Below, piece by piece: positions 1,075-64,000 of a stretch of DNA of 64,000 nt (its first letter is position 1; each line of letters starts with the position of its first letter). Made by a program: the position numbers and the translations under genes. Below the pieces are notes generated by a model that was not told the DNA's origin, ran no database searches, and was given only the letters and a program-made list of their open reading frames with translations. This DNA is from an archaeon. Its GTDB lineage: Archaea; Nanobdellota; Nanobdellia; Woesearchaeales; GW2011-AR9. The stretch is taken from contig JAUYKZ010000023.1 in NCBI GenBank assembly GCA_030704845.1, forward strand, positions 14,262 to 78,261. Direction: 5' to 3'.

Positions 1075-1791
1075 TTAAATGTATCGTCTGATTTTTATAA
1101 ATGCTTTTGCTTCAAGCTGTCTGATTCTTTCCCTACTCACGTTGTATTGATTTCCAAGTTCTTCTAAGGTAACTCCTTCTTCACCATCTAAACCAAGGCG
1201 CCTTATAACGATATCTCTGCTACGTTCATTTAAATCAATTTCTGCCATAACCCTAATCAAGCGAATCTTATACCGCTCAGAATCATCCACGCCTTCTGTG
1301 AGAAGTGTGTAAGGGTCAGTATTATTGGATGATATTTTTTCATATCTTTCTGTTCTTCCACTCTCGCCAACTAGTTGATCTAAAGATAACTGAATTTGTT
1401 CAGCTAGGATTATTTCCAATACTTCATCTAAGGGAATATCTAATCTTTCAGATATTTCATTAGGTGTTGCGTCGGTTCCAACTCTTGAACGTCGACTATG
1501 AAATTTTCTTCTAGATCTTGTATCTCCGGAAAGCCCACCTATCTTTCTTAATCCATTATAAATTCCTTTTAAGATATATGGTTTTGCATAAGTGACAAAT
1601 TTTGCAATTGTAGGATCATATTTTTTTGCAGCTTCAACTAATTCAAGAATAGCTTCAGCTTTAACATCTTCGAATGCAGAATGATCTGGTAGAATAAATT
1701 TTTTGACGTACGATGTAGCAAAACCTAGGTGATCTGCAGGATTAGATGAGTAGTCTCTGTCTTCAGTAGATTTTTTAACACTTTTAGTCAT
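1075..1791 (-). CDS. sigma-70 family RNA polymerase sigma factor (bacterial type)
   Basis: Region 2 is present (EAILELVEAAKKYDPTIAKFVTYAKPYILKGIYNGL, which matches the EGNxGLMKAVEKFDPxxGxKFSTYATWWIRQ pattern). Region 4 HTH is present (VTLEELGNQYNVSRERIRQLEAKAFIKIRRY). At 238 aa it is the size of a group 3 or FliA-like sigma. Confidence 0.7.
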   Translation of the reverse strand: MTKSVKKSTEDRDYSSNPADHLGFATSYVKKFILPDHSAFEDVKAEAILELVEAAKKYDPTIAKFVTYAKPYILKGIYNGLRKIGGLSGDTRSRRKFHSRRSRVGTDATPNEISERLDIPLDEVLEIILAEQIQLSLDQLVGESGRTERYEKISSNNTDPYTLLTEGVDDSERYKIRLIRVMAEIDLNERSRDIVIRRLGLDGEEGVTLEELGNQYNVSRERIRQLEAKAFIKIRRYI

Positions 1792-11642: not shown

Positions 11643-12440
11643 CTAACTTTTTTTGATAACGTAAAATATCTCATTTGTAAACTCTATAATCTGATGAACA
11701 TACCCTTTTCTTTCACATAACCATTCGACCCAGTTCCTTCTTGGGGCAGTCATTTTTTTCCCGCTCATGGTTCTGGTAGCAAAACTCATTATCATATATT
11801 TAGCTGGAATTTTTTCTAGAAGATTCTCAGTAATTTTATGTCCTTTACCCCTATCAAGCACATCAGTCATTTTTAATAAGAAACAAACATCGACCTTAGG
11901 CAGAATATCATTAACAATATCTTTAACTTCAGCTCTACCTTTGAAAGAACTATTTTTCTTTTCAAGGATCTTAAAATATTTTTGAATAAATTCGATTTCT
12001 TCAGAACTAATATCATAAGCATGATATTCTAGTTCTTTAAGTTTCATGAATAGGTATGAAAACGGATTTAATCCACATCCCAGATCAAGAATGGTTTTCG
12101 GTTTACCAGTTATCGTAAAGATTTTCTGATATAAATCTTCATAAATTAATAATCGTTCTTTAGTTGATGAATGAGTGGTAAGAATTTCTTTTATTCTACC
12201 TTCACTTAGAAGCTGTTCCCGTTCTTTTTTGTTTTCATCACGGAACAATCCATAAACTCTTCTTAAGATAGTTCTAATGTCTTTGATAATAATTCTATAA
12301 TCTTTAGATTTGACATTTAATTTGGTAAGGTCAATTCTTGGATGCTGTTTAAGATATTTTTCTAACTCTGTTTTAACGAACTGATCGCTGATTGATGAGA
12401 GTTCTTTCTTTTTCTTAATTTCTTGGATGAATTCTTCCAT
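11643..12440 (-). CDS. class I SAM-dependent methyltransferase (tentatively 16S rRNA m7G1405 Rmt/ArmA-like family)
   Basis: ILDLGCGLNPFSY SAM-binding motif. The preceding HSSTKERL...LYQKIF segment recalls the FmrO/Rmt family. That assignment is a guess. Confidence 0.45.
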   Translation of the reverse strand: MEEFIQEIKKKKELSSISDQFVKTELEKYLKQHPRIDLTKLNVKSKDYRIIIKDIRTILRRVYGLFRDENKKEREQLLSEGRIKEILTTHSSTKERLLIYEDLYQKIFTITGKPKTILDLGCGLNPFSYLFMKLKELEYHAYDISSEEIEFIQKYFKILEKKNSSFKGRAEVKDIVNDILPKVDVCFLLKMTDVLDRGKGHKITENLLEKIPAKYMIMSFATRTMSGKKMTAPRRNWVEWLCERKGYVHQIIEFTNEIFYVIKKS

Positions 12441-12477
12441 ACATCTAAAGAAAGAAGAATCTGCTTAAAAATCTGTT

Positions 12478-12618
12478 GGGTCTCTTGGCTAATATGAAAC
12501 CCTCTTTATCTTTTGTATTAGCGCCCTGTCGGAGACGAGGCGGGTACTCGTAAGAGTACGATATCCGCCGTGCTCTAATACAAAGATTATTGAGGGTTTC
12601 ATATTAGCCGGGTCTCTT
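12478..12618. mobile_element. MITE-like element: 18-bp perfect terminal inverted repeats, 9-bp flanking direct repeats, GC-rich hairpin core
   Basis: The flanks both read gggtctctt (12478-12486 and 12610-12618). The TIRs are ggctaatatgaaaccctc (12487-12504) and gagggtttcatattagcc (12592-12609). The interior forms nested stems, including gtactc-gtaa-gagtac with a GNRA-type loop. Confidence 0.5.
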
Positions 12619-12996
12619 ATTCATTGATAAAGCAATTAAATAAATTAAGCAAAGCTTCTCTTCAACGAATCTCTAGCACATTGGAAAGCCGAGGTTAAAT
12701 ATCCGAAATCAGATGTTCGTTACACAAAAGCAGGATTTGAACCATTAACAGAGACCATAATCAGAAATGATAAAATCGGCATTATCATTTGGAGTGATAA
12801 ACCTCTTGGTATTATCATCCACCAAAAAGAAGCTGCTGAATCTTATGATCAATTTTTTAAAATAATGTGGAGTACTGCAATTCCTTAGATTATTCAAGTA
12901 ATATTGTTAAACTTTGTTTAGGATATATTAAACAATTCGTTTCTACTAAATTCAATTTCCGCTACTTTTTTAAACAATAACATAATCTAAGTATTT

Positions 12997-14000: not shown

Positions 14001-14031
14001 ACCTTATTTTAAATCTGTTAAAACATATACT

Positions 14032-14111
14032 AAAGTGCCAAAGCTTTCGAACTTATTTTTGGCACTTTATATATATAAAATGCGTTAATATATTAGAAAT
14101 CTAACGCATTT
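14032..14111. repeat. two intergenic hairpins (aaagtgcca...tggcacttt; aaaatgcgttaa...taacgcatttt)
   Basis: Read directly. The second shares its arms with the palindrome at 25380-25455. Confidence 0.5.
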
Positions 14112-14161
14112 TAGTATATAAATGTTGTGTTAACGAGATATACCCAAAAGCGTTATCGTCA

Positions 14162-41337: not shown

Positions 41338-41390
41338 ATGCATTGGCAGAGAAAGGTTTCTTATTTAAAGATTACTGTTTTTATATCATA

Positions 41391-41462
41391 AAAATTCTGG
41401 AAAGTGTCACACCCACCATAAATAGTGTGGTTTGATTTGACACTTTCTAAACCCAGAATTTT
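41391..41462. repeat. intergenic nested palindrome (aaaattctgg/ccagaatttt outer; gaaagtgtca/tgacactttc inner)
   Basis: Read directly. Lies between the two tRNA genes. Confidence 0.5.
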
Positions 41463-41534
41463 TAGGATGCCAAAAATGTCTTCCTAAATGGTTGTATTTT
41501 AAACACAGCGACATTTTTGTGCATAAAAAAGAGT

Positions 41535-41668
41535 GTCGGGGAAGGGATTCGAACCCTCGAACCCACTAAGAGACAGGATATCTTCCAAGGAAGCCAATTA
41601 TCAATAATTGGTGCCTCATCCATGTGGACTTAAGTCCTGCGCATTTGACCGGACTTTGCTACCCCGAC
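41535..41668 (-). tRNA. tRNA-Leu (UAA) with intron of about 49 nt at position 37/38
   Basis: Minus strand reads gtcggggtagcaaag...gcaggacttaag[intron tccacatggatgaggcaccaattattgataattggcttccttggaagat]atcctg-long variable arm-gagggttcgaatcccttccccgac. The acceptor and T arm are canonical. After intron removal the anticodon stem is cagga/tcctg with loop cTTAAga. The intron carries its own ccaattat/ataattgg hairpin. Confidence 0.55.
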
Positions 41669-44553: not shown

Positions 44554-46617
44554 CTACATCCCGTCGCCGATTGTAATCACTTGGTCTTCATAACTTCCAT
44601 CCCGGTAAATGGTTAACCCTTTACATTTCATCTTCCAGGCTAGCATGTAAGCATCTTCGACATCTTTAATTGCAGCCGTTCTAGGAAAATTAACCGTCTT
44701 TGAAATTGAATTGTCAACATGTTTCTGTAATGTTGCTTGCATTTTGATGTGCCATTCAGGTTTTATATCTTGAGCTGTGACAAAAACATCTCTTACATCT
44801 TTAGGAACTTCTTTGATATGTTGTACTCCACCCATTAAAGACAATTTTCTCATTAGTTCTGGGGAATAAAATCCTCTATCTTTTGCAACTTTTTCAAAGA
44901 CTGAATTGACTGTAATTAATTCATTACTGCTTAGCACAGTTCTTTGAAATGCTAAAGCAAATGCAGGTTCACAACCAGAAGTTGTATTTGCAAGAATACT
45001 TCTGGTACCTGTTGGCGATAAAGATATGCAACTCATATTTCTCATTTTTCTTCCTGCTTTTTCGTGATCTGAACCTTCCCAAGCTGGGCAAACACCTCTT
45101 TCTTCAGCAAGTTGAGAAGATTTCTCATAAACAGCATCTTTAAAGAACGACATCAATTTTTCAGCGATTGCTAATCCTTCTTCTGAATCATATTTAATAC
45201 CTAGCATGAATAACATGTCGGCAAATCCCATGATTCCAAGTCCAAACTTACGCGTTTTTTTGGTTTGTTCTTCAATTTTAGCTTTCGGATAACTATTCAT
45301 GTCAATCACATTGTCAAGAAAATGAACTGATATCTGGATAACTTCTCTTAATTTTTCCCAATCTAAATCTTTCCCAATAACAAATTTTGCAACGTCAATA
45401 CTACCCAAAGCACATCCTTCATTAGGTAATAATGGTGCTTCGCCACATTGATTTGTTGTTTCAATTTCTCCGAGATGTCTAGCAGGATGTTTTCGGTTAA
45501 TTTCATCGATAAAAATTAATCCTGGATCACCAGTTTTCCAAGCATTTTGAGTAATAACCGCGAAAACGTCTTTCGCTCTTAACTTCCCAACATATTTACT
45601 AGTGCGTGGATTTTTTAAGAAATATTCTCGATCTTCTTCAACTGATTTCATAAATCGGTCAGTTACAGCAACTGAAATGTTAAAATTCTTTAATGACCTT
45701 TTATCTCTTTTTGAATCAATGAATCTTAATATGTCTGGATGGTCAACTCTTAGCACAGCCATGTTTGCTCCAGGTCTTACTCCTCCTTGTTTGATAACGT
45801 CAAGAGCCGCATCATAAACTTTCAAAAATGCTAACGGACCGGAGGCAACCCCTAGATGGTGTTGTACCGGATCACCTTTAGATCTTAATCTAGAAAAAGC
45901 AAATCCAGTTCCGCTTCCTCGTTGATGAATGATTGCCGCATCACGAAGAGTTCCAAAAATTGAACGCATGTTATCTTCAATTGGAAGAACGAAACATGCA
46001 CTTAACTGCTGACTGTTTGTTCCAGCATTCATTAATGTTGGCGAGTTAGGTAAAAAATAAAGTTTGGAAAGAATCATATAAAATTGTTGTGATATTTCTG
46101 CAATCTGTTCTGAATTTTTCCGGTAATACTTATCCGCTTTTGCAATATTATTAGCAACTCTTTGGAGCATGCCTTCTGGATTTTCTTTAAGATTTCCAAG
46201 TTGATCTTTCATTAAATATCTTCTATCTAATATTTTTAATGCTTCATTGGTAAATGAATGATCTTCTTCACCGACATGTTGTTCGCCTAGAATTAATGCT
46301 CTTCTTGCTCTGGTTTCACTTCTGGTATGCCGATGTAGAATGTATGCTTTTGCAGTCTTAGCATGTCCCCTATCAATTAATGTTTTTTCAACTAGGTCTT
46401 GTACGTTCTCAACAGTCGGTTTAGAAAGTTGAAATTTTTCACCAATAATCCTTTCGATATCCCTCGCTAAAGCAAGGGCCAATACTTTATCATCACCACC
46501 TACTGCTTGAGCTGCTTTGAAGATTGCATCAGCAATTTTGTTTACGTTAAACGAGACAATTCTTCCATCACGTTTAGTTATTTCTTTTATTTGGAAACTT
46601 TTGTTATCTTCTGTCAT
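44554..46617 (-). CDS. ribonucleotide reductase catalytic subunit (class II-like) with N-terminal ATP-cone
   Basis: ATP-cone (IKEITKRDGRIVSFNVNKIADAI). It has LPNSPTLMNAGT, SACFVLPIEDN radical-Cys and NQCGEAPL motifs. No beta subunit gene is nearby, and an adenosyltransferase sits adjacent. Confidence 0.75.
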   Translation of the reverse strand: MTEDNKSFQIKEITKRDGRIVSFNVNKIADAIFKAAQAVGGDDKVLALALARDIERIIGEKFQLSKPTVENVQDLVEKTLIDRGHAKTAKAYILHRHTRSETRARRALILGEQHVGEEDHSFTNEALKILDRRYLMKDQLGNLKENPEGMLQRVANNIAKADKYYRKNSEQIAEISQQFYMILSKLYFLPNSPTLMNAGTNSQQLSACFVLPIEDNMRSIFGTLRDAAIIHQRGSGTGFAFSRLRSKGDPVQHHLGVASGPLAFLKVYDAALDVIKQGGVRPGANMAVLRVDHPDILRFIDSKRDKRSLKNFNISVAVTDRFMKSVEEDREYFLKNPRTSKYVGKLRAKDVFAVITQNAWKTGDPGLIFIDEINRKHPARHLGEIETTNQCGEAPLLPNEGCALGSIDVAKFVIGKDLDWEKLREVIQISVHFLDNVIDMNSYPKAKIEEQTKKTRKFGLGIMGFADMLFMLGIKYDSEEGLAIAEKLMSFFKDAVYEKSSQLAEERGVCPAWEGSDHEKAGRKMRNMSCISLSPTGTRSILANTTSGCEPAFALAFQRTVLSSNELITVNSVFEKVAKDRGFYSPELMRKLSLMGGVQHIKEVPKDVRDVFVTAQDIKPEWHIKMQATLQKHVDNSISKTVNFPRTAAIKDVEDAYMLAWKMKCKGLTIYRDGSYEDQVITIGDGM

Positions 46618-46622
46618 CAGAT

Positions 46623-49600
46623 TTAACTACACCCAGTTGTTTCTCCGCAAACTTCACATAACATGCATGTGCCATTTTGTCTTAATTGAGTTGCTCCGCA
46701 ACCACTACATTTCATGGTTGTATTTTTTGTTGAAACTATTCTGCTTGAGATTTCTTTTTTTACAGGTTCATTCGTTGATTTGATCTTAATACCCATGTCT
46801 TCAAAGTCACAAAGGAACTCTTGAAGTTCTGAGATTACAGGATGTCCCGGTACATTTAAACTTTCCCTTGCAATCTTAACTGGATCGGCTCCTTCTCTTA
46901 GACTGAAATTAACTCCATTAACAATGGTTTGCATCATTACTTGTTGTATTGGTGAGACCCAATCCATTGAGATTTCAATTCCCCCAATTATATTATTTTT
47001 AACTTCAGCAGTAAATATACATTTTTTACCAGCAAGTTTTACAACTTTTTTGTAATATGTTATTGGCGAAACTTCCAAAGGAGTTACAGTTTCTTCCGTT
47101 GATTTAGAGGTAAGTATATTCTTAAGCTGAGAGTTTTCTCCTAAAATCGAATTTAATGGTTGGCTTAATTTGCTTCCATCTCGGTAAAGAGCAACAGCTT
47201 TAATCATCAATTTCCAGGAATCATAGTATGCTTTTTTTATCTGTTCAACGGTCCATTCTTGAGGCATGTTAATTGTCTTAGAGATTGCACCAGAAACAAA
47301 TGGTTGAGTTGCCGCAAGCATATTTAGATGTCCATAAGGGTGGATATATCTTTTTCCGCCTTTACCACATTTATTAGCACAATCAAAGACTGGTAGATGT
47401 TCTTCTTTAAGATGCGGAGCACCTTCTAACATCATTGTTCCACAGATGTGTTTATTTGCTGCATCAATTTCTGTTTCTGTAAATCCAAGGGCAGTAAGGA
47501 AATTTCCTTGTTTTCCATTCATGATTCTATTATAGAAATCTTCTCCTAATGTCCATTGATTAAAGACATAACTAATATCCATGGAGTTTCCTAATTCTTT
47601 CTCTACTTTCATGATTTGCTGTTCACTAAATCCCTTAGCAGTTAAAGAATCAAGGTTAATGTAAGGGCTTCCATCAAGACTACCATTGCCAAGACAATAT
47701 TGAATAATATCTCTTGTTTGTCCTTCAGTATATCCTAATTTACGTAACGATTTTGGAACTGATTGATTAACAATCTTGAAATATCCACCACCAGCTAGTT
47801 TCTTGAATTTAACTAATGCATAATCCGGTTCAACACCGGTAGTATCACAATCCATAACTAAACCAATTGTTCCAGTTGGGGCGAGAACGGTTGTTTGTGC
47901 ATTTCTATATCCGTGATTTTCTCCTAACCGTAGAGCCTTATCCCAAGCGTTATGAGCGGCTTCTAGCAGTTCTTTAGGACAGAGAATTTGATCAAGCGCT
48001 AGTGGTTTGATTGTTAGATCTTCATAATCTTCTTCGGAGGCATTATAAGAAGCTCTTCGATGATTTCTGATTACCTTTAACATGTGTTCTTTGTTATCTT
48101 CATATCTCTCAAATGGTGCAAGGGCCGATGCTAACTCTGCTGAAGTAGCATAAGCATCACCAGTCATGATTGCTGTTAAGGCACCAGAAATTGTTCTTCC
48201 TTTATCACTATCATATGGAATTCCTTGTAACATTAACAATGAACCAACGTTAGCAAATCCTAACCCTAAAGTTCTGTATTCAAAACTTCTCATTGCAATT
48301 TGTTCAGATGGGAAATGGGCCATTAATACAGATAACTCTAATGCGATAGTCCATAATCTGATTGCATGTCGATATCCTTTAATATCAAAAATTCCAGTTT
48401 TATCTTCATAGAACTTTACTAAATTAATTGATGCAAGATTACAAGCAGTATCATCTAAAAAATTATATTCTGCGCAAGGATTACTTCCGTTAATTCTTCC
48501 TCCTTCAGGGCAAGTATGCCATTCATTGATGGTTGAATCATATTGTATTCCTGGATCGGCACTAGCCCATGCACAATAACCAATTTGATCCCACAATTCA
48601 TGTGCGGGGATAGTTTTCATTACACTCCCGTCAGTTCTTGCTTTTAATTCCCATGCTTCTCCATTTTCTAATGCTTCAAAGAATGAATTTGGAATTCTTA
48701 CAGAATTATTACTGTTCTGTCCAGATACTGTAACGTAAGCTTCAGATTCATAATGGGTATCGAATTCTTGAAGTGGTAAAGAATATCCTTGTTTTGCTAA
48801 TTCTAAAGCTCTAATAACATAATTTACCGGAATTTCGTCGTGTGAAGCAGCTTTGATTGCATTCTGTACTCCTAAATCATTTAATGGGTTTTCTTTACCT
48901 TGAGAAAGTTCGATAAGTTTGCCTAATCGTTTTTTTAGAATTTTACTTCCTGCAACCAAATCTGCAACTTTTTCTTCTTCTTTAACTTTCCACCAGATTA
49001 AACTTTCAATTTCGGGATGATCTAAATCTAATGAAATCATTTTGGCAGCTCTTCTAGTAGTTCCGCCAGACTTTATACTTCCGGCAGCGACATCAAATAT
49101 TTTAAGGAAACTCATTAACCCGCTACTTGTTCCTCCACCCGAAAGACGTTCACCTTTTCCACGTAATGCTGAGAAGTTACTTCCGGTCCCGCTACCATAT
49201 TTGAATATTCTTGCTTCTCTGATAAGTAAACTTAGAATTCCGCCATCACGAACTAAATCGTCATTTAATGCTTGAATAAAACAATTGTGTACAACAACCC
49301 CATTCCCCAAAAATTTTCCACTTTCTGTTTGAATGTCATATACATTCTTAATACCAATGCTTTCTATTGACATGATTTGTTCTTCTCTGATAAGTGGAAG
49401 ACATTTTGAACGTTGGACTAGTTTGTTGAGTAGTAGCAATTTATCATGTTTCTCCTCACTAATGAAACCAATTTGTTCGGAATATTGTTCACGAGCACTT
49501 CCATAAGCAATAATCACTTGATTTGTTCCTGCACGATTTTCTCGGCTATCAATATTCTTAGATATTCTTGCATAAATCCCAACAGAATTAAGCAATTGTA

Positions 49601-50987
49601 GCACGCCAAATGATAAATCATCTGAACTGGTCGTTAAGCAGATATCTCCCGAGTGTCTACTTTCATCTACTCTTATTCTAACACACCCATCGGCTTGGAA
49701 AAGGGTTTTAAGGAACTCTCGTTTTTCTTGAGGCGAGGAGTATACTATTTTCTTTGGAACTCGAGCTGTTCTACTTCTACTTTCTAGCAGTTCATATTCC
49801 TCAACAAAAGGATGTATCTTTTTCCCAGCTAGATGAACTCTTTTTCCATTTATATTATCACTTTTGGTATCAAATGTTGTAATCCAATAACTCACATCAT
49901 TACCAAAAACTTCCTTAATATCTTCTATTACTGATTCATGTTCGGAATCATTAATGGTTATTATCTCCATTCTCATTACGTTAGAATAAATTCCAACTGA
50001 GCCATCTCCGACAACCCATCCAGCTAATCTTGCTTTAGCTAAATCTCTACTGAAAACATTTTTTTCTTTAACATCAAGCATTAATGGTTGCTGAAGCCTA
50101 TGTCTTACTTTAACATCCTTAAGTTCCTTCCAAGTGTATTCACCATGCCATTTCTCTGCTGAGAGTACTACATGATCATTAGTTAAATCAATATAATTGC
50201 CATTTTTAAGAAGGACTCTAAATACTTCTTTTCTACCATTATCCTTAGTCGCTAGAATTTTTACAAAATCTTCTCCATCAAATACTTTAATTCCAGCTAA
50301 ATTATTTTCAACAATATCTCCAATATACATTGTGCCTTTTTCAGTATACAATTGTGTGTAATATTCTGCACACGCATGCGGTTGTGATCTAGAATATGCA
50401 TCTTTTGAGAATTCTAATCTCTTTGTGATTGGATCAACATAACTATGTCCTTGAGCAGGTCCAGTAATTCCATATGCCCAATGAAGACCAGTTGTAAACC
50501 ATTGCGGGCTGTTAGGAGCAGCAGATTGATTAATTATCATGTAAATCATTTCATCATAGAATGTTTGTGCATCATCTTCTGTTGCAAAATAATTAAATTT
50601 CTTCCCCCAATTCATCCAACATCCAGCAATTCTGTGAGCAACTTGTTTAATGCTGGTTTCACTGCCAGAAATAACTTTTCCATTTTCATCAAGAAGTAAT
50701 TCTCCATTCTCGTCACGTAAAGGCACTCCCGCTTTCCGGAAATATTTCTGAGCGAGAATATCGGTAGCTACTTGTGACCAGAAATCAGGGACTTCTACGT
50801 CATTCATTTCAAAAACAGTACTTCCATCTGGATTTTTAATAATAGAGGTTCTTCGTTCATAATTGAACATTTCTGCTGGTGGTGTATCTTCTTTAGTATA
50901 ATATCTTGGAATCTTTAATCCTTCTTGTTCAAGCATAATTTCCTCTTCTTCTTCACCCAGATTTGTTTTATTTTTCATTATAGCCAC
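46623..50987 (-). CDS. ribonucleotide reductase (class II-like, about 1085 aa extein) containing one LAGLIDADG intein; C-terminal zinc ribbon
   Basis: Extein motifs are CFIQALNDD radical-Cys, NPCAEYNFL...CNLASINL, and a terminal CSGCG...[13 protein letters not shown]. The intein spans residues 206-568 (about 363 aa). It begins CAEYY, ends VVHN followed by C, and has [11 protein letters not shown] and LFQADGCV endonuclease blocks. Confidence 0.8.
49284..50372 (-). other. intein with LAGLIDADG homing endonuclease inside the RNR gene
   Basis: The Cys1 ... His-Asn/Cys+1 splice junctions sit exactly at the RNR active-site cysteine codon (host context SQPHA|CFIQ). Coordinates were derived by residue counting. 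Confidence 0.7.
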
Positions 50988-51266: not shown

Positions 51267-51413
51267 AACTATTCGGCGCTGTCCAGAAAGTCATAAAAAT
51301 GTATACTGGGGCACGGCGCTCATTACGAGCTTCACTTCGTTTGCTCGTGCGCCTCGACTACGTCAGGGCGCCAGTATACAAAAAAGAGACTTTCTGGACA
51401 GCGCCAACTATTC
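51267..51413. mobile_element. second MITE-like element: 18-bp perfect TIRs, 8-bp flanking direct repeats, GC-rich core
   Basis: The flanks both read aactattc (51267-51274 and 51406-51413). The TIRs are ggcgctgtccagaaagtc (51275-51292) and gactttctggacagcgcc (51388-51405). The interior is GC-rich with nested stems. Confidence 0.5.
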
Positions 51414-51449
51414 GTTAACCTTTTAAATCATTTAATCTTTCTTACCATA

Positions 51450-51965
51450 ATGGTTACTTCAATCATCATTAAAAGCCTTTATTTTTTCTTACCGGTATAT
51501 TTTGCTAATATGGCTCCGGTATTATTCAAATGGTTACCTTTTAAGAAACCAATAAGTAAAAAAATGTTTGGTAAAAACAAAACGTGGAGAGGATTGATTG
51601 TGGCTATATTAGTTGGTGGAATTGTTTTCTGGGCACAGAAACTTCTTTTTAATGCTGGTTTTGTTTCCCTAGCTTTCATTGATTATCATGATTTCCCCAT
51701 ATACTATGGTTTTCTGTTAGGAATTGGAGCAATTTTAGGTGATCTTGTCAAGAGTTACTATAAACGTAAAGTAGGAATAAAACCGGGCGATTCTTGGTTA
51801 TTTTTTGATCAAGAAGATTTCGTGATTGGAGCATTTTTATTCTCATTATTTTATTATGTTCCGCCTATAGAAATTGTTTTTACATTATTCCTGGTAAGTC
51901 CATTTTTACATATGGCAGCAAATTATACCGGTCATCTTCTTGGAATTCGTGAAAAACCGTTATAA
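51450..51965 (+). CDS. carS: CDP-archaeol synthase (CarS, DUF46 family)
   Basis: About 170 aa and multi-TM. The GDLVKSYYKRKVGIKPGDSWLFFDQED region resembles the CarS cytoplasmic loop motif. Confidence 0.55.
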   Translation: MVTSIIIKSLYFFLPVYFANMAPVLFKWLPFKKPISKKMFGKNKTWRGLIVAILVGGIVFWAQKLLFNAGFVSLAFIDYHDFPIYYGFLLGIGAILGDLVKSYYKRKVGIKPGDSWLFFDQEDFVIGAFLFSLFYYVPPIEIVFTLFLVSPFLHMAANYTGHLLGIREKPL

Positions 51966-52944: not shown

Positions 52945-53217
52945 ATGATGTTATATGATGCAGAAGTTCAGAAAGTATTGGATAAAATAAAAGAATCTAA
53001 TGCAAAAACCGTTTGCATTCAGCTACCGGATGGTATGAAACCTTATGCAAAAGAAATTGAAGAAAAGATTAGGGAAGAAACTGGAGCAAGAGTTTTAATC
53101 TGGCTTGGAAGTAATTTTGGTGCTTGTGATATTCCTTTAGGTTTAAATAAAATGGGAGTCGATCTTCTCGTCTCTTGGGGACATAACATTTTCCATAAAA
53201 AAATGGAGGGATGGTAG
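52945..53217 (+). CDS. dph2: Dph2 N-terminal segment (2-(3-amino-3-carboxypropyl)histidine synthase), ends at in-frame TAG
   Basis: VCIQLPDGM...VLIWLGSNFGACD...SWGHNIF aligns with the archaeal Dph2 N-terminus. Confidence 0.6.
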   Translation: MMLYDAEVQKVLDKIKESNAKTVCIQLPDGMKPYAKEIEEKIREETGARVLIWLGSNFGACDIPLGLNKMGVDLLVSWGHNIFHKKMEGW

Positions 53218-53220
53218 AAG

Positions 53221-53970
53221 ATGGAAACATTATTCTTAGAAGCGACTTATTCAGGAACCGTAGAATTATGTCCAGAGACTATTTCTTACCTAACGAAGAA
53301 AGGGTATACCAAGATTGGATTATATGCTTCCGTGCAGTTTGTTGGAAAACTGGAGACGGTAGAATCACAACTTAATGAACTAGGGGTCACTTCGGTTACA
53401 TCACGACCAGATAGAACTCACGTTAAAGGACAATTGTTAGGTTGCGACAATTATCATAATTCTTTAAATTTAGATAAAGATATTCAAGTTTACCTATATG
53501 TCGGCGATGGACGTTTTCATCCTCTAGCTTTAGTTTATGCTCAGAAGGATTCTAATGAGATGAAAGAAATTATTTGTAATGATCCCATTAATAAGAGGAT
53601 GGTTTTAATGGGAATAGAAGACATTTGTACTATTCTTAAAAAATATCGTGGGTCGTTGGTTAAATTCTTCACAGCTAAGATGGTGGGTGTTCTTATTACG
53701 ATTAAACCTGGGCAAGAACAATTTAAACCGGCTCTATTATTAGAGAAGAAATACCTCGATAAAAGGTTCTATTACTTTATTGACAATGTTATATCTTTTG
53801 ACCAGCTCGAAAATTTCAATTTTATCGACGTATGGGTCAATACTGCTTGTCCGAGGGTAGGATTTGACGACCAAGAGAAGTTTGTTAGAGGAGTAATTAA
53901 TCTAAATGATGCTCTCTCGGTCGAGGAGATCCTTGGAAAAGAGAGTGTATTTAATAAAAAAATCCAATAA
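53221..53970 (+). CDS. dph2: Dph2 remaining segment, same frame, ATG one codon after the TAG
   Basis: QLLGCDNYHN, VGDGRFHPLAL and VNTACPRVGFDD align with the Dph2 domain 2/3 cysteine motifs. Confidence 0.6.
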   Translation: METLFLEATYSGTVELCPETISYLTKKGYTKIGLYASVQFVGKLETVESQLNELGVTSVTSRPDRTHVKGQLLGCDNYHNSLNLDKDIQVYLYVGDGRFHPLALVYAQKDSNEMKEIICNDPINKRMVLMGIEDICTILKKYRGSLVKFFTAKMVGVLITIKPGQEQFKPALLLEKKYLDKRFYYFIDNVISFDQLENFNFIDVWVNTACPRVGFDDQEKFVRGVINLNDALSVEEILGKESVFNKKIQ

Positions 53971-63135: not shown

Positions 63136-63298
63136 ATTACGGTGATCGATGATTGGTTTTAGTCAGTGTTGGTAGAGTGACAAAGAAATAGTGATTATGT
63201 ACAGTTTGTATCATATAATTCTAACTACAACTTAACCAGTTCACGGCCGATGATCTTCTTCGAGTACTTCGCAACCACGTTGAGCATGGTGCTGTACT

Positions 63299-63943
63299 TC
63301 ATGACGAAGAGTGGCGTGTCCTGCTCGTAACGACCGGGATGTTGAGAAAGCCACTCACGCAGGTACTTCGCGGCTCGGTAGCACGAGGTTCGAGGTACAT
63401 ACCCTGGCCATTACTGAACTCTCCGTACCACCCCGTGTCGTCGTCGAAGAGGTCGGAGAGCATCGAGCTGCCGCAGAGGTAGCGCCTCACCAGCACTTGG
63501 TTCAGGACGTTGGGTGCATCGCCACACACGCAATTGACCCCGCAGTGGCAGTCGGCAGGGCAGGACGCGCATGTTTCTCCGCCTCCGCACGCGCCATCGC
63601 CACAGCGGGGTCGCGGGATGCACGAATTGCCGACGCAGTCTTCGTTGGCGGCACACGTGTTAGGACAGCTTCCTCCGCAGCCGTCTGTCCCGCACTCCTT
63701 GTTAGCGCAGCTCCGGACGCAGCCTACACAGGTTCCGTTCAGGCAGCCATTGACACAGTCCTCGACAACGCGGACGTTCTGGCCACAGACATCGAATTCC
63801 CAGAGGTCACCCACGCCGCAGCGTCGACCCGCAATGTTCGGTGCGCAGTAGCCCGGTTGCCCTGGAGATCCGGTACAGGTGTGATCCTGATGACATTGGT
63901 AGTCCCATTCGCAGGGCGGAGTGCAGCGGCCACCCTGGCACAC
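63299..63943 (-). CDS. cysteine-rich repeat protein (CGDG/CxxC repeats), probably N-terminally incomplete at the window edge; GC-rich gene
   Basis: Repeated C-x-x-C-G-D-G-like units (RCGDGACGGGETCASC, CGTDGCGGSC). GC-rich codon usage unlike the rest of the window. The minus-strand frame is chosen over overlapping plus-strand ORFs because of the regular Cys spacing. Confidence 0.35.
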   Translation of the reverse strand: MCQGGRCTPPCEWDYQCHQDHTCTGSPGQPGYCAPNIAGRRCGVGDLWEFDVCGQNVRVVEDCVNGCLNGTCVGCVRSCANKECGTDGCGGSCPNTCAANEDCVGNSCIPRPRCGDGACGGGETCASCPADCHCGVNCVCGDAPNVLNQVLVRRYLCGSSMLSDLFDDDTGWYGEFSNGQGMYLEPRATEPRSTCVSGFLNIPVVTSRTRHSSS

Positions 63944-64000
63944 CCAACCTGGCCGGCATTCGTTATCGACGTTGCAGAGGGAGCACCAGTCGCCGAGTGG

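Follow-up and report, generated by a model that had tools for sequence, protein, structure and literature searches.

The carS locus and element E2

The DNA analysed here is a 64-kb stretch (the window) of an archaeal contig, in which a 462-nt gap separates a class II ribonucleotide reductase gene (46623–50987, minus strand) from carS (51450–51965, plus strand), the gene for CDP-archaeol synthase (CarS; Pfam PF01864). The gap houses a 131-bp element, hereafter E2 (51275–51405, core on the plus strand), made of 18-bp terminal inverted repeats around a hairpin-forming interior and flanked by a direct repeat. The terminal inverted repeats, GGCGCTGTCCAGAAAGTC, occupy 51275–51292 (plus strand) and 51388–51405 (minus strand, reading GACTTTCTGGACAGCGCC on the plus strand) and are complementary over 18/18 bp; two matches were observed against 0.01 expected in shuffled sequences, and none of 100 shuffles gave both. 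The direct repeat AACTATTCG is exact over 9 nt (51267–51275 and 51406–51414). Since the last G of its left copy, AACTATTC(G), doubles as the first base of the left terminal repeat, the duplication may be counted as 8 or 9 bp.

The interior of E2 is a set of nested palindromes with a GC fraction of 0.52, against approximately 0.33 for the window. Folded as RNA it reaches −72.2 kcal/mol (z = −10.5), and the opposite strand −69.9 kcal/mol. The terminal repeats form the outer stem P1, the left one being its 5′ arm, and are separated from a second stem, P2, by two A-rich internal loops that appear in the fold: ATAAAAA (51293–51299), unpaired in the minimum-energy structure, and AAAAAAG (51381–51387). 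The two arms of P2, TGTATACTGG (51300–51309) and CCAGTATACA (51371–51380), pair with each other and are supported by covariation. They enclose a Y-shaped conserved core (51310–51370, plus strand; covariance-model score of 83 bits, with covariation) in the order G-GC-AC, P3 (GGCGC...GCGCC, with a 5′ bulge and, distally, a variable hairpin), UC, P4 (GAC-UAC-GUC) and AGG-GC-G. Two sequence motifs mark this core, GCACGGCG at 51311–51318 and CGCCTCGACTACGTCAGGGCGC at 51350–51371. The original prediction of a mobile element had thus described the locus well: its perfect 18-bp terminal repeats, its GC-rich nested-hairpin interior and its placement in the gap upstream of the CDP-archaeol synthase gene were all borne out, and the 8-bp direct repeat it reported is real, with the reservation on length given above.

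Immediately downstream of the right duplication copy (51406–51414), of which the TATTCG part is collinear with relatives that do not carry the E2 insertion, lies the carS promoter (51415–51429, plus strand), consisting of a BRE-like TTAAC and the TATA box CTTTTAAATC. This promoter is conserved in the carS relatives L126–L132. Its TATA box stands at −30 from the ATG, matching the genome-wide TATA peak, and was left intact by the insertion; the ATG itself is 45 nt from the end of E2. An identical sequence is present in L125, an independent assembly of the same sample, so E2 is not an assembly artefact. The terminal repeat of E2 also occurs, unchanged or nearly so, in L118, L120B and L125.

Several other features of the window were recorded. 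A tandem pair of ribonucleotide reductase genes (44554–50987, minus strand) includes a larger member (1454 aa) with a LAGLIDADG intein. Downstream of carS, a Dph2-like diphthamide-synthesis gene (52945–53970, plus strand) is interrupted by one in-frame TAG (53215–53217), leaving ORFs of 90 and 249 aa; the second assembly L125 has the same interruption. A 238-aa ORF (1075–1791, minus strand) matches bacterial sigma-70 regions 2, 3 and 4 (Pfam, region 4 E = 7e-15) on what is otherwise a DPANN archaeal contig, and the same gene is found in the independent assembly L322. Towards the end of the window (63235–64000) the GC content rises from about 30% to about 60%, over a Cys-rich minus-strand ORF that has no Pfam match; an independent Logan contig of the same sample stops at 63272. 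The segment may represent a chimeric join, a repeat or an island acquired horizontally.

A sister element and the extent of the family

A second element, E1 (123 bp, 12487–12609, core on the minus strand), lies elsewhere in the window. Its terminal repeats are GGCTAATATGAAACCCTC, and it is flanked by the direct repeat GGGTCTCTT (12478–12486 and 12610–12618). The neighbouring gene codes for an FmrO-like methyltransferase (11643–12440, minus strand); its TATA box (ATTTTTAAGC on the minus strand) is at 12463–12472 and its ATG is 47 nt from the end of E1. E1 and E2 had been taken to share their organisation and not their sequence, and on that basis to be two independent instances. The common organisation holds, and the remainder does not. 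E2 (plus strand) and E1 (minus strand) have in common GCACGGCG and a 22-nt block, CGCCTCGnCTnCGnCAGGGCGC, so that the shared core can be written GCACGGCG ... CGCCTCGnCTnCGnCAGGGCG; each common motif occurs exactly twice in the window, where 0–0.09 occurrences are expected. A single covariance model, built from eight cores, scores E2 at 83 bits and E1 at 81 bits, while the rest of the 64 kb does not exceed 12 bits with filters off. The outer 18-bp stems and the distal hairpins are unlike in sequence between the two elements, and their pairing is kept. Judged by these shared sequences, E1 and E2 are two members of one family, not independent inventions, and as homologues they do not provide independent evidence when both are counted.

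Pattern and covariance-model searches recovered at least about 20 relatives of E2 in low-GC DPANN metagenome-assembled genomes (MAGs) and metagenomes. More specifically, a core-motif scan of species-representative genomes gave at least six true members in four low-GC MAGs (32–36% GC, labelled Methanosarcinales), most of the matches listed from that scan being chance matches in GC-rich bacteria. A stricter two-motif pattern gave eight metagenome loci, inside which the covariance model found extra copies. Copies can be clustered: two in the 64-kb window, three in 12.4 kb of L120 and two in L121. A 6-kb extension of the contig (L322) held no further copy. For CarS and for the FmrO-like gene product beside E1, the best named relatives are from Nanoarchaeota and Woesearchaeota. 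Three scans of viral contigs and a phage blastn search returned chance matches or none, with no family member in viral contigs or phage records, and a virus or plasmid origin was dropped.

Family members are about 120–170 bp long and follow one plan. The terminal inverted repeats (stem P1) measure 17–20 bp and begin with GG, commonly as GGnnnnGTCC(A/G)GAA; repeats related to those of E2 were found in 13 other copies. Inside P1 come A-rich internal loops, which are conserved at the P1/P2 position across the family, and then P2, often TGTATAC/GTATACA. The centre is a three-way junction composed of G-GC-AC, P3, UC, P4 and AGG-GC-G, in which P3 is a GGCG helix with a 4–6-nt 5′ bulge and a variable hairpin of three classes, and the 3-bp P4 varies between GAC/GUC, GUC/GAC and GGC/GCC, one copy having a 45-nt insertion in the P4 loop. 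When 20 cores were aligned, 92.4% of pair cells held standard pairs against 30–48% in slid-partner controls, and 105 double-sided changes were counted. The terminal repeats of E1 and E2 diverge widely between subfamilies and the interior is the conserved part; the usual MITE pattern is one of conserved terminal repeats rather than a conserved interior.

Some members depart from this plan. L005, L099 and L122 have no terminal repeats, and the core-bearing copies without terminal repeats at L117 (8560–8740), L123 (980–1090) and L119 (2530–2720; L119b) are bounded by longer direct repeats of 21, 14 and 13 bp, within a range of 12–21 bp. These longer repeats are unexplained by a 9-bp staggered-cut model, and one simple transposase model may not cover all members. 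Members that have no terminal repeats or that bear 12–21-bp direct repeats may be decayed or rearranged copies.

Two AT-rich imperfect palindromes of about 95–125 bp were also seen in the window, at 41365–41488 and 14025–14119. The former lies between two tRNA genes and holds TTCTGG/CCAGAA, which resembles the family terminal repeats; both may be decayed hairpin elements.

Evidence for mobility

E2 is an insertion that generated a target duplication of 8–10 bp (mode 9), the signature of a staggered cut, and it has moved recently. A copy at L118 is identical to E2 at 130 of 131 positions and has other flanks and another duplication, GAGGATTT(G) in place of AACTATTC(G); from this near-identical copy at another locus with a different 9-bp duplication it follows that the family moved recently. 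Across the family, exact duplications of 8–10 bp, unrelated in sequence and symmetrically placed, flank 10 of the 14 copies that bear terminal repeats. In L120, element B duplicated CTATCGAAC, a 9-mer that had already been duplicated by its neighbour, element A (CTATCTAAC/CTATCGAAC), so that one site was used twice.

In the relatives L316–L320, E1 is absent from the orthologous position, and both flanking homology blocks abut there. Relatives whose FmrO is 84% and 79% identical have an 80-nt divergent spacer that reads ...TTTAAAAAAgtagcggaaACCCA(G/A)CAG(A/G)TTTTTAAGC...ATG, compared with which the window is longer by 471 nt; E1 and its duplication account for part of these, and other DNA for about 337 nt. 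This last segment (12619–12955, next to E1) is likewise missing in the relatives, where the divergent promoters stand 18 nt apart; by eye, one of its reading frames resembles a fragment of a protein gene. It suggests that the same promoter spacer received a second insertion.

At carS, TATTCG|TTAACCTTTTAAATC marks the exact start of homology between the window and its relatives, a point within the right copy of the duplication. No clean empty site for E2 was found among the carS relatives, which carry other members or remnants at that promoter. A different family member or remnant is present upstream of the conserved carS promoter in each related strain, which indicates repeated insertion at this site. 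In L126–L131, where CarS is 85% identical, the sequences differ over the 100–250 nt upstream of carS: L126, L127, L130 and L131 retain the right half of an E2-like element, and in L128 and L129 a P4-less core in the opposite orientation is joined to the same right-end remnant. The pattern suggests that family members replaced one another, or recombined, at this one site.

A strong intergenic hairpin such as E2 could in itself be an intrinsic terminator, or a palindrome that either arose by chance or is a native regulatory feature upstream of a promoter. That explanation is almost certainly wrong, already refuted as it is by copies at unrelated loci: both terminal-repeat matches arose in 0/100 shuffles, the sequence belongs to a family spread over several genomes, different loci show different duplications, and relatives have orthologous sites from which the element is absent.

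E2 has the attributes that mark out a MITE (miniature inverted-repeat transposable element), being small (131 bp, well under approximately 600 bp), bounded by terminal repeats, associated with variable duplications, non-coding and multicopy; presence/absence polymorphism is seen in the absence of E1 from relatives. The only ORF inside E2 is not conserved. The length of P3 differs by 8 nt between E1 and E2 and insertions of at least 40 nt occur elsewhere; as these differences are not multiples of three, E2 is non-coding. We therefore find the original prediction of a non-autonomous and recently active transposon upheld by the terminal repeats, the duplications, the L118 copy, the roughly 20 relatives in related genomes, the absence of E1 in relatives and the lack of conserved coding capacity. 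Among 40 window ORFs searched with Pfam, none matched a transposase, an integrase or a reverse transcriptase, terminal repeats formed no long-range pair in any family locus examined, and no autonomous insertion sequence (IS) with the family terminal repeats was found in the window, the family loci or the viral contigs. As no transposase was found in the sequences searched, the MITE label is founded on anatomy and mobility. Overall, E2 is very probably a copy of a non-coding hairpin MITE or foldback DNA transposon family of low-GC Woesearchaeota/Nanoarchaeota-like DPANN archaea.

Position relative to promoters

Copies of the family almost always sit next to promoters, which are preserved, and the branched hairpin is conserved. 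At 11 of 13 insertion loci one end of the element is 42–49 nt upstream of the ATG that opens an ORF of 50 codons or more. Besides the 45 nt of E2 and the 47 nt of E1, the distances are 46 nt at L111, 48 nt at L118, 47 nt at L059, 46 and 49 nt on the two sides of the L114 element, 42 nt at L119a, 46 nt at L120B, 45 nt at L120C, 47 nt at L121a and 45 nt at L121b. A TATA-like hexamer begins at +14 to +18 from an element end in 13 of 14 copies. An alignment of the targets shows 4–7 mostly A-rich nucleotides between the duplicated 9-mer and the BRE/TATA of a leaderless gene. Random intergenic positions of the window satisfy the ATG criterion in 3.8% of cases and the TATA criterion in 9.8% (p < 1e-12). 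In about half of 55 window ORFs a TATA-like hexamer is found at −32 to −27 from the ATG, a peak that is the signature of leaderless genes. The exceptions to the rule are L018 and L124, which lie away from promoters.

Such a distribution could also arise from essentially random insertion followed by survival, if the position at −45 were the sole harmless place between the end of the upstream gene, or a divergent promoter, and the BRE/TATA. Some loci fit this description: at L119a, L121a and L121b the upstream gene ends 4–11 nt from the element, leaving no other harmless place there, and the L114 element occupies the whole gap between two divergent promoters. At several loci, however, 290–660 nt of spacer are free on the other side. 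E2, L111 and L120C have about 300–510 nt of free spacer opposite, yet their start codons are 45–46 nt from one end; the 387-nt spacer of E1 consists mostly of the 337 nt of extra DNA that relatives do not have. In addition, the distance from duplication to TATA is 4–7 nt in nearly all copies and not a mere minimum, the identical 9-mer was used twice in L120, and independent insertions struck the carS promoter in three different lineages. Survival after random insertion is for these reasons the less likely account, though still a serious one. The fixed −45 spacing in spite of free spacer, the re-used 9-mer and the recurrent insertions at carS are read here as target-site choice, and from the positions of its copies the family shows an apparent preference for promoter-proximal targets.

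Nature of the conserved core

The three-way junction raises the question of what is under selection. Its strong covariation together with conserved unpaired nucleotides, its GC-rich composition in an AT-rich genome, the persistence of core-bearing copies that have no terminal repeats and the occurrence of the same 21-nt motif in another structured region of other Nanoarchaeota MAGs would all suit a functional structured RNA, either a small RNA or a ribozyme-like module, that travels with the mobile hairpin or was exapted from it. Against this reading, E2 has no match at the gathering threshold or at E values up to 10 in Rfam 15, whose families include small ribozymes, SRP RNA, RNase P and sRNAs. 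G-U pairs are nearly absent and strand-symmetric: six on the top strand against nine bottom-strand equivalents (A-C), among 505 Watson-Crick pairs. Folding energies favour neither strand consistently across copies, the core occurs in both orientations with respect to the neighbouring gene (10 to 3), and the elements lie upstream of promoters, outside transcripts. An internal promoter was considered from reading of the sequence and rejected, since transcripts started from the A-rich loops, which look like TATA boxes, would begin within the core. The strand-symmetric stems, the equal folding and the mixed orientation argue for constraint on folded DNA over transcribed RNA, and an RNA function is in our view unlikely.

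Known RNA classes were also considered. Reading of the sequence led us to drop a hammerhead (E2 has no CUGAUGA/GAAA core), as well as a K-turn or box C/D, an H/ACA, a BHB intron motif and a tRNA-like fold. ARAGORN called no tRNA on E2, and at the gathering threshold Rfam matched only three tRNAs in the window. One Rfam tRNA match of 135 nt (41534–41668, minus strand; 45.7 bits) was not called by ARAGORN and is probably an intron-containing archaeal tRNA.

A 21-nt motif, CGCCTCGTCTGCG(T/C)CAGGGCG, accompanied by GGCAC, was observed in a different GC-rich structured region in L009, L022, L077, L043 and L100, which are Nanoarchaeota and Woesearchaeota MAGs. The conserved structured region is about 100–330 nt long, and a 101-nt piece of it from L043 folds at −55 kcal/mol (z = −5.6). 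An SRP RNA origin of the motif was dropped after three Rfam E-value scans without an SRP, RNase P or other match. An RNA not described before, and related to the MITE core, may be encoded there.

The element might alternatively be moved by a structure-specific enzyme, such as a HUH nuclease or a recombinase working on a folded strand or cruciform, that recognises the Y-shaped hairpin instead of carrying out DDE cut-and-paste. Precedents exist in the T-shaped ends of parvoviruses, recognised by Rep proteins, and in folded attC sites, recognised by IntI. The junction is conserved while the terminal repeats diverge, its stems are perfectly Watson-Crick on both strands, and the members that have no terminal repeats bear other direct repeats, all of which would agree with such an enzyme. 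The variable 8–10-bp duplications that abut the terminal repeats are, however, a staggered-cut signature that HUH, IS200/IS605-type and attC systems are not known to leave, and no gene for an enzyme of this sort was found by Pfam among the 40 window ORFs. We regard this route as very unlikely. Classification of E2 among IS200/IS605, REP/RAYT or other HUH elements was likewise rejected, as it has terminal repeats and duplications, and integron attC sites were rejected because the family occurs as single copies at promoters, flanked by duplications, with no integrase in the window.

Proposed mechanism

Taking E2 as a member of a MITE family moved by staggered cutting, we propose that a transposase encoded elsewhere would act in trans, recognising the terminal repeats and making a staggered cut of approximately 9 bp. 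A DDE enzyme of the IS1 or IS256 sort is a lead only, drawn from the 8–10-bp duplication and the GG termini; the autonomous partner would then encode a DDE transposase and have GGnnnnGTCCAGAA-type repeats and a 9-bp duplication at its borders. Targets might be chosen through the architecture of the promoter, whether DNA bent by TBP/TFB or the A/T-rich box itself. A role of the junction core at the DNA level is suggested by the Watson-Crick pairing that its stems maintain on both strands; the transposase or a host factor could bind it in the form of a folded strand or a cruciform.

A bolder version of this scheme, which we put forward tentatively as a possibility, is that of a promoter-homing transposon. 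Its machinery would read the core promoter (TBP/TFB-bent DNA or BRE/TATA) and insert just upstream of the footprint of the pre-initiation complex, and the Y-shaped junction, not the terminal repeats, would be what it recognises.

The family has practical consequences as well. Its members stand at a fixed position relative to the TATA box and so offer a natural marker of core promoters in unculturable organisms, and they probably give rise to polymorphism in promoter regions and to breaks in assemblies. Should target choice be enzymatic, the family would also give a handle on how a transposase senses the archaeal transcription initiation complex.

Comparison with known systems

To our knowledge, neither definition by a junction core nor a fixed insertion at −45 has ever been described for archaeal MITEs. 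A non-exhaustive full-text literature search returned no description of a junction-defined MITE family or of a fixed promoter-upstream insertion, and neither a three-way-junction family nor a fixed promoter spacing figures in the passages of PMC10969869 or PMC11602168 that were consulted. Archaeal MITEs are known from Sulfolobus (SM1–SM4), Halobacterium, Haloquadratum and others (PMC10969869). In a 2024 prokaryotic census, a Woesearchaeal genome is among the most MITE-dense archaea, with 105 per Mb (PMC11602168), so MITEs in Woesearchaeota are not new; DPANN genomes are tiny, yet one of them ranks this high among those reported there. The E2 family resembles archaeal MITEs in being non-coding and multicopy, in size (about 80–190 bp for the known elements), in its terminal repeats and duplications and in its presumed mobilisation in trans. 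It differs from them in conserving an asymmetric GC-rich three-way junction and not its terminal repeats, which vary from one subfamily to another, in its concentration at about −45 from start codons and in having no known parent IS. Two features appear to be new: the definition of a family by its GC-rich three-way junction, conserved where the terminal repeats are divergent, and the sharp fixing of insertions at one position upstream of archaeal core promoters. A conserved branched core with divergent ends also calls into question the view that terminal repeats define a MITE family.

Among bacterial hairpin MITEs, the closest likeness is to the Correia elements of Neisseria and to ERIC of enterobacteria, which are 100–155 bp long, form long hairpins and are mostly intergenic. 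Correia elements are bacterial, make a TA duplication, have terminal repeats that are conserved, and contain sigma-70 promoters as well as an IHF site. We know of no fixed distance between them and a core promoter element. They are predominantly found immediately upstream of genes (PMC10969869).

With regard to ends and duplications, the 8–10-bp duplication and GG ends of the E2 family are reminiscent of IS1 and IS256 of the ISfinder family tables; E2 itself begins GGCGCTG. Both IS families make 8–9-bp target duplications and have ends starting with GG (GGnnnTG for IS1). Unlike them, several subfamily ends of the E2 family misfit GGnnnTG, and no transposase gene or matching full-length IS was found in the sequences searched.

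In its shape, a long stem ending in a branched junction whose structure is conserved more than its sequence, the family resembles the T-shaped hairpins of parvoviruses (AAV ITR) and attC sites. These are recognised by HUH Rep proteins or by IntI and are not known to leave a target duplication, and the E2 family differs from them in having no array, cassette, or Rep or IntI gene. Lastly, the yeast retrotransposons Ty3 and Ty1 (TFIIIB, Pol III) and Tf1 of S. pombe offer a functional analogy only, that of integration at a fixed short distance upstream of a TBP-defined start. They are retrotransposons with known tethering proteins, whereas the host here is archaeal and the mechanism is deduced from insertion positions. 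If the promoter-homing scheme proves true, the E2 family would give archaea their first equivalent of Ty3-like promoter-tethered integration, and would be a MITE identified by its folded core.
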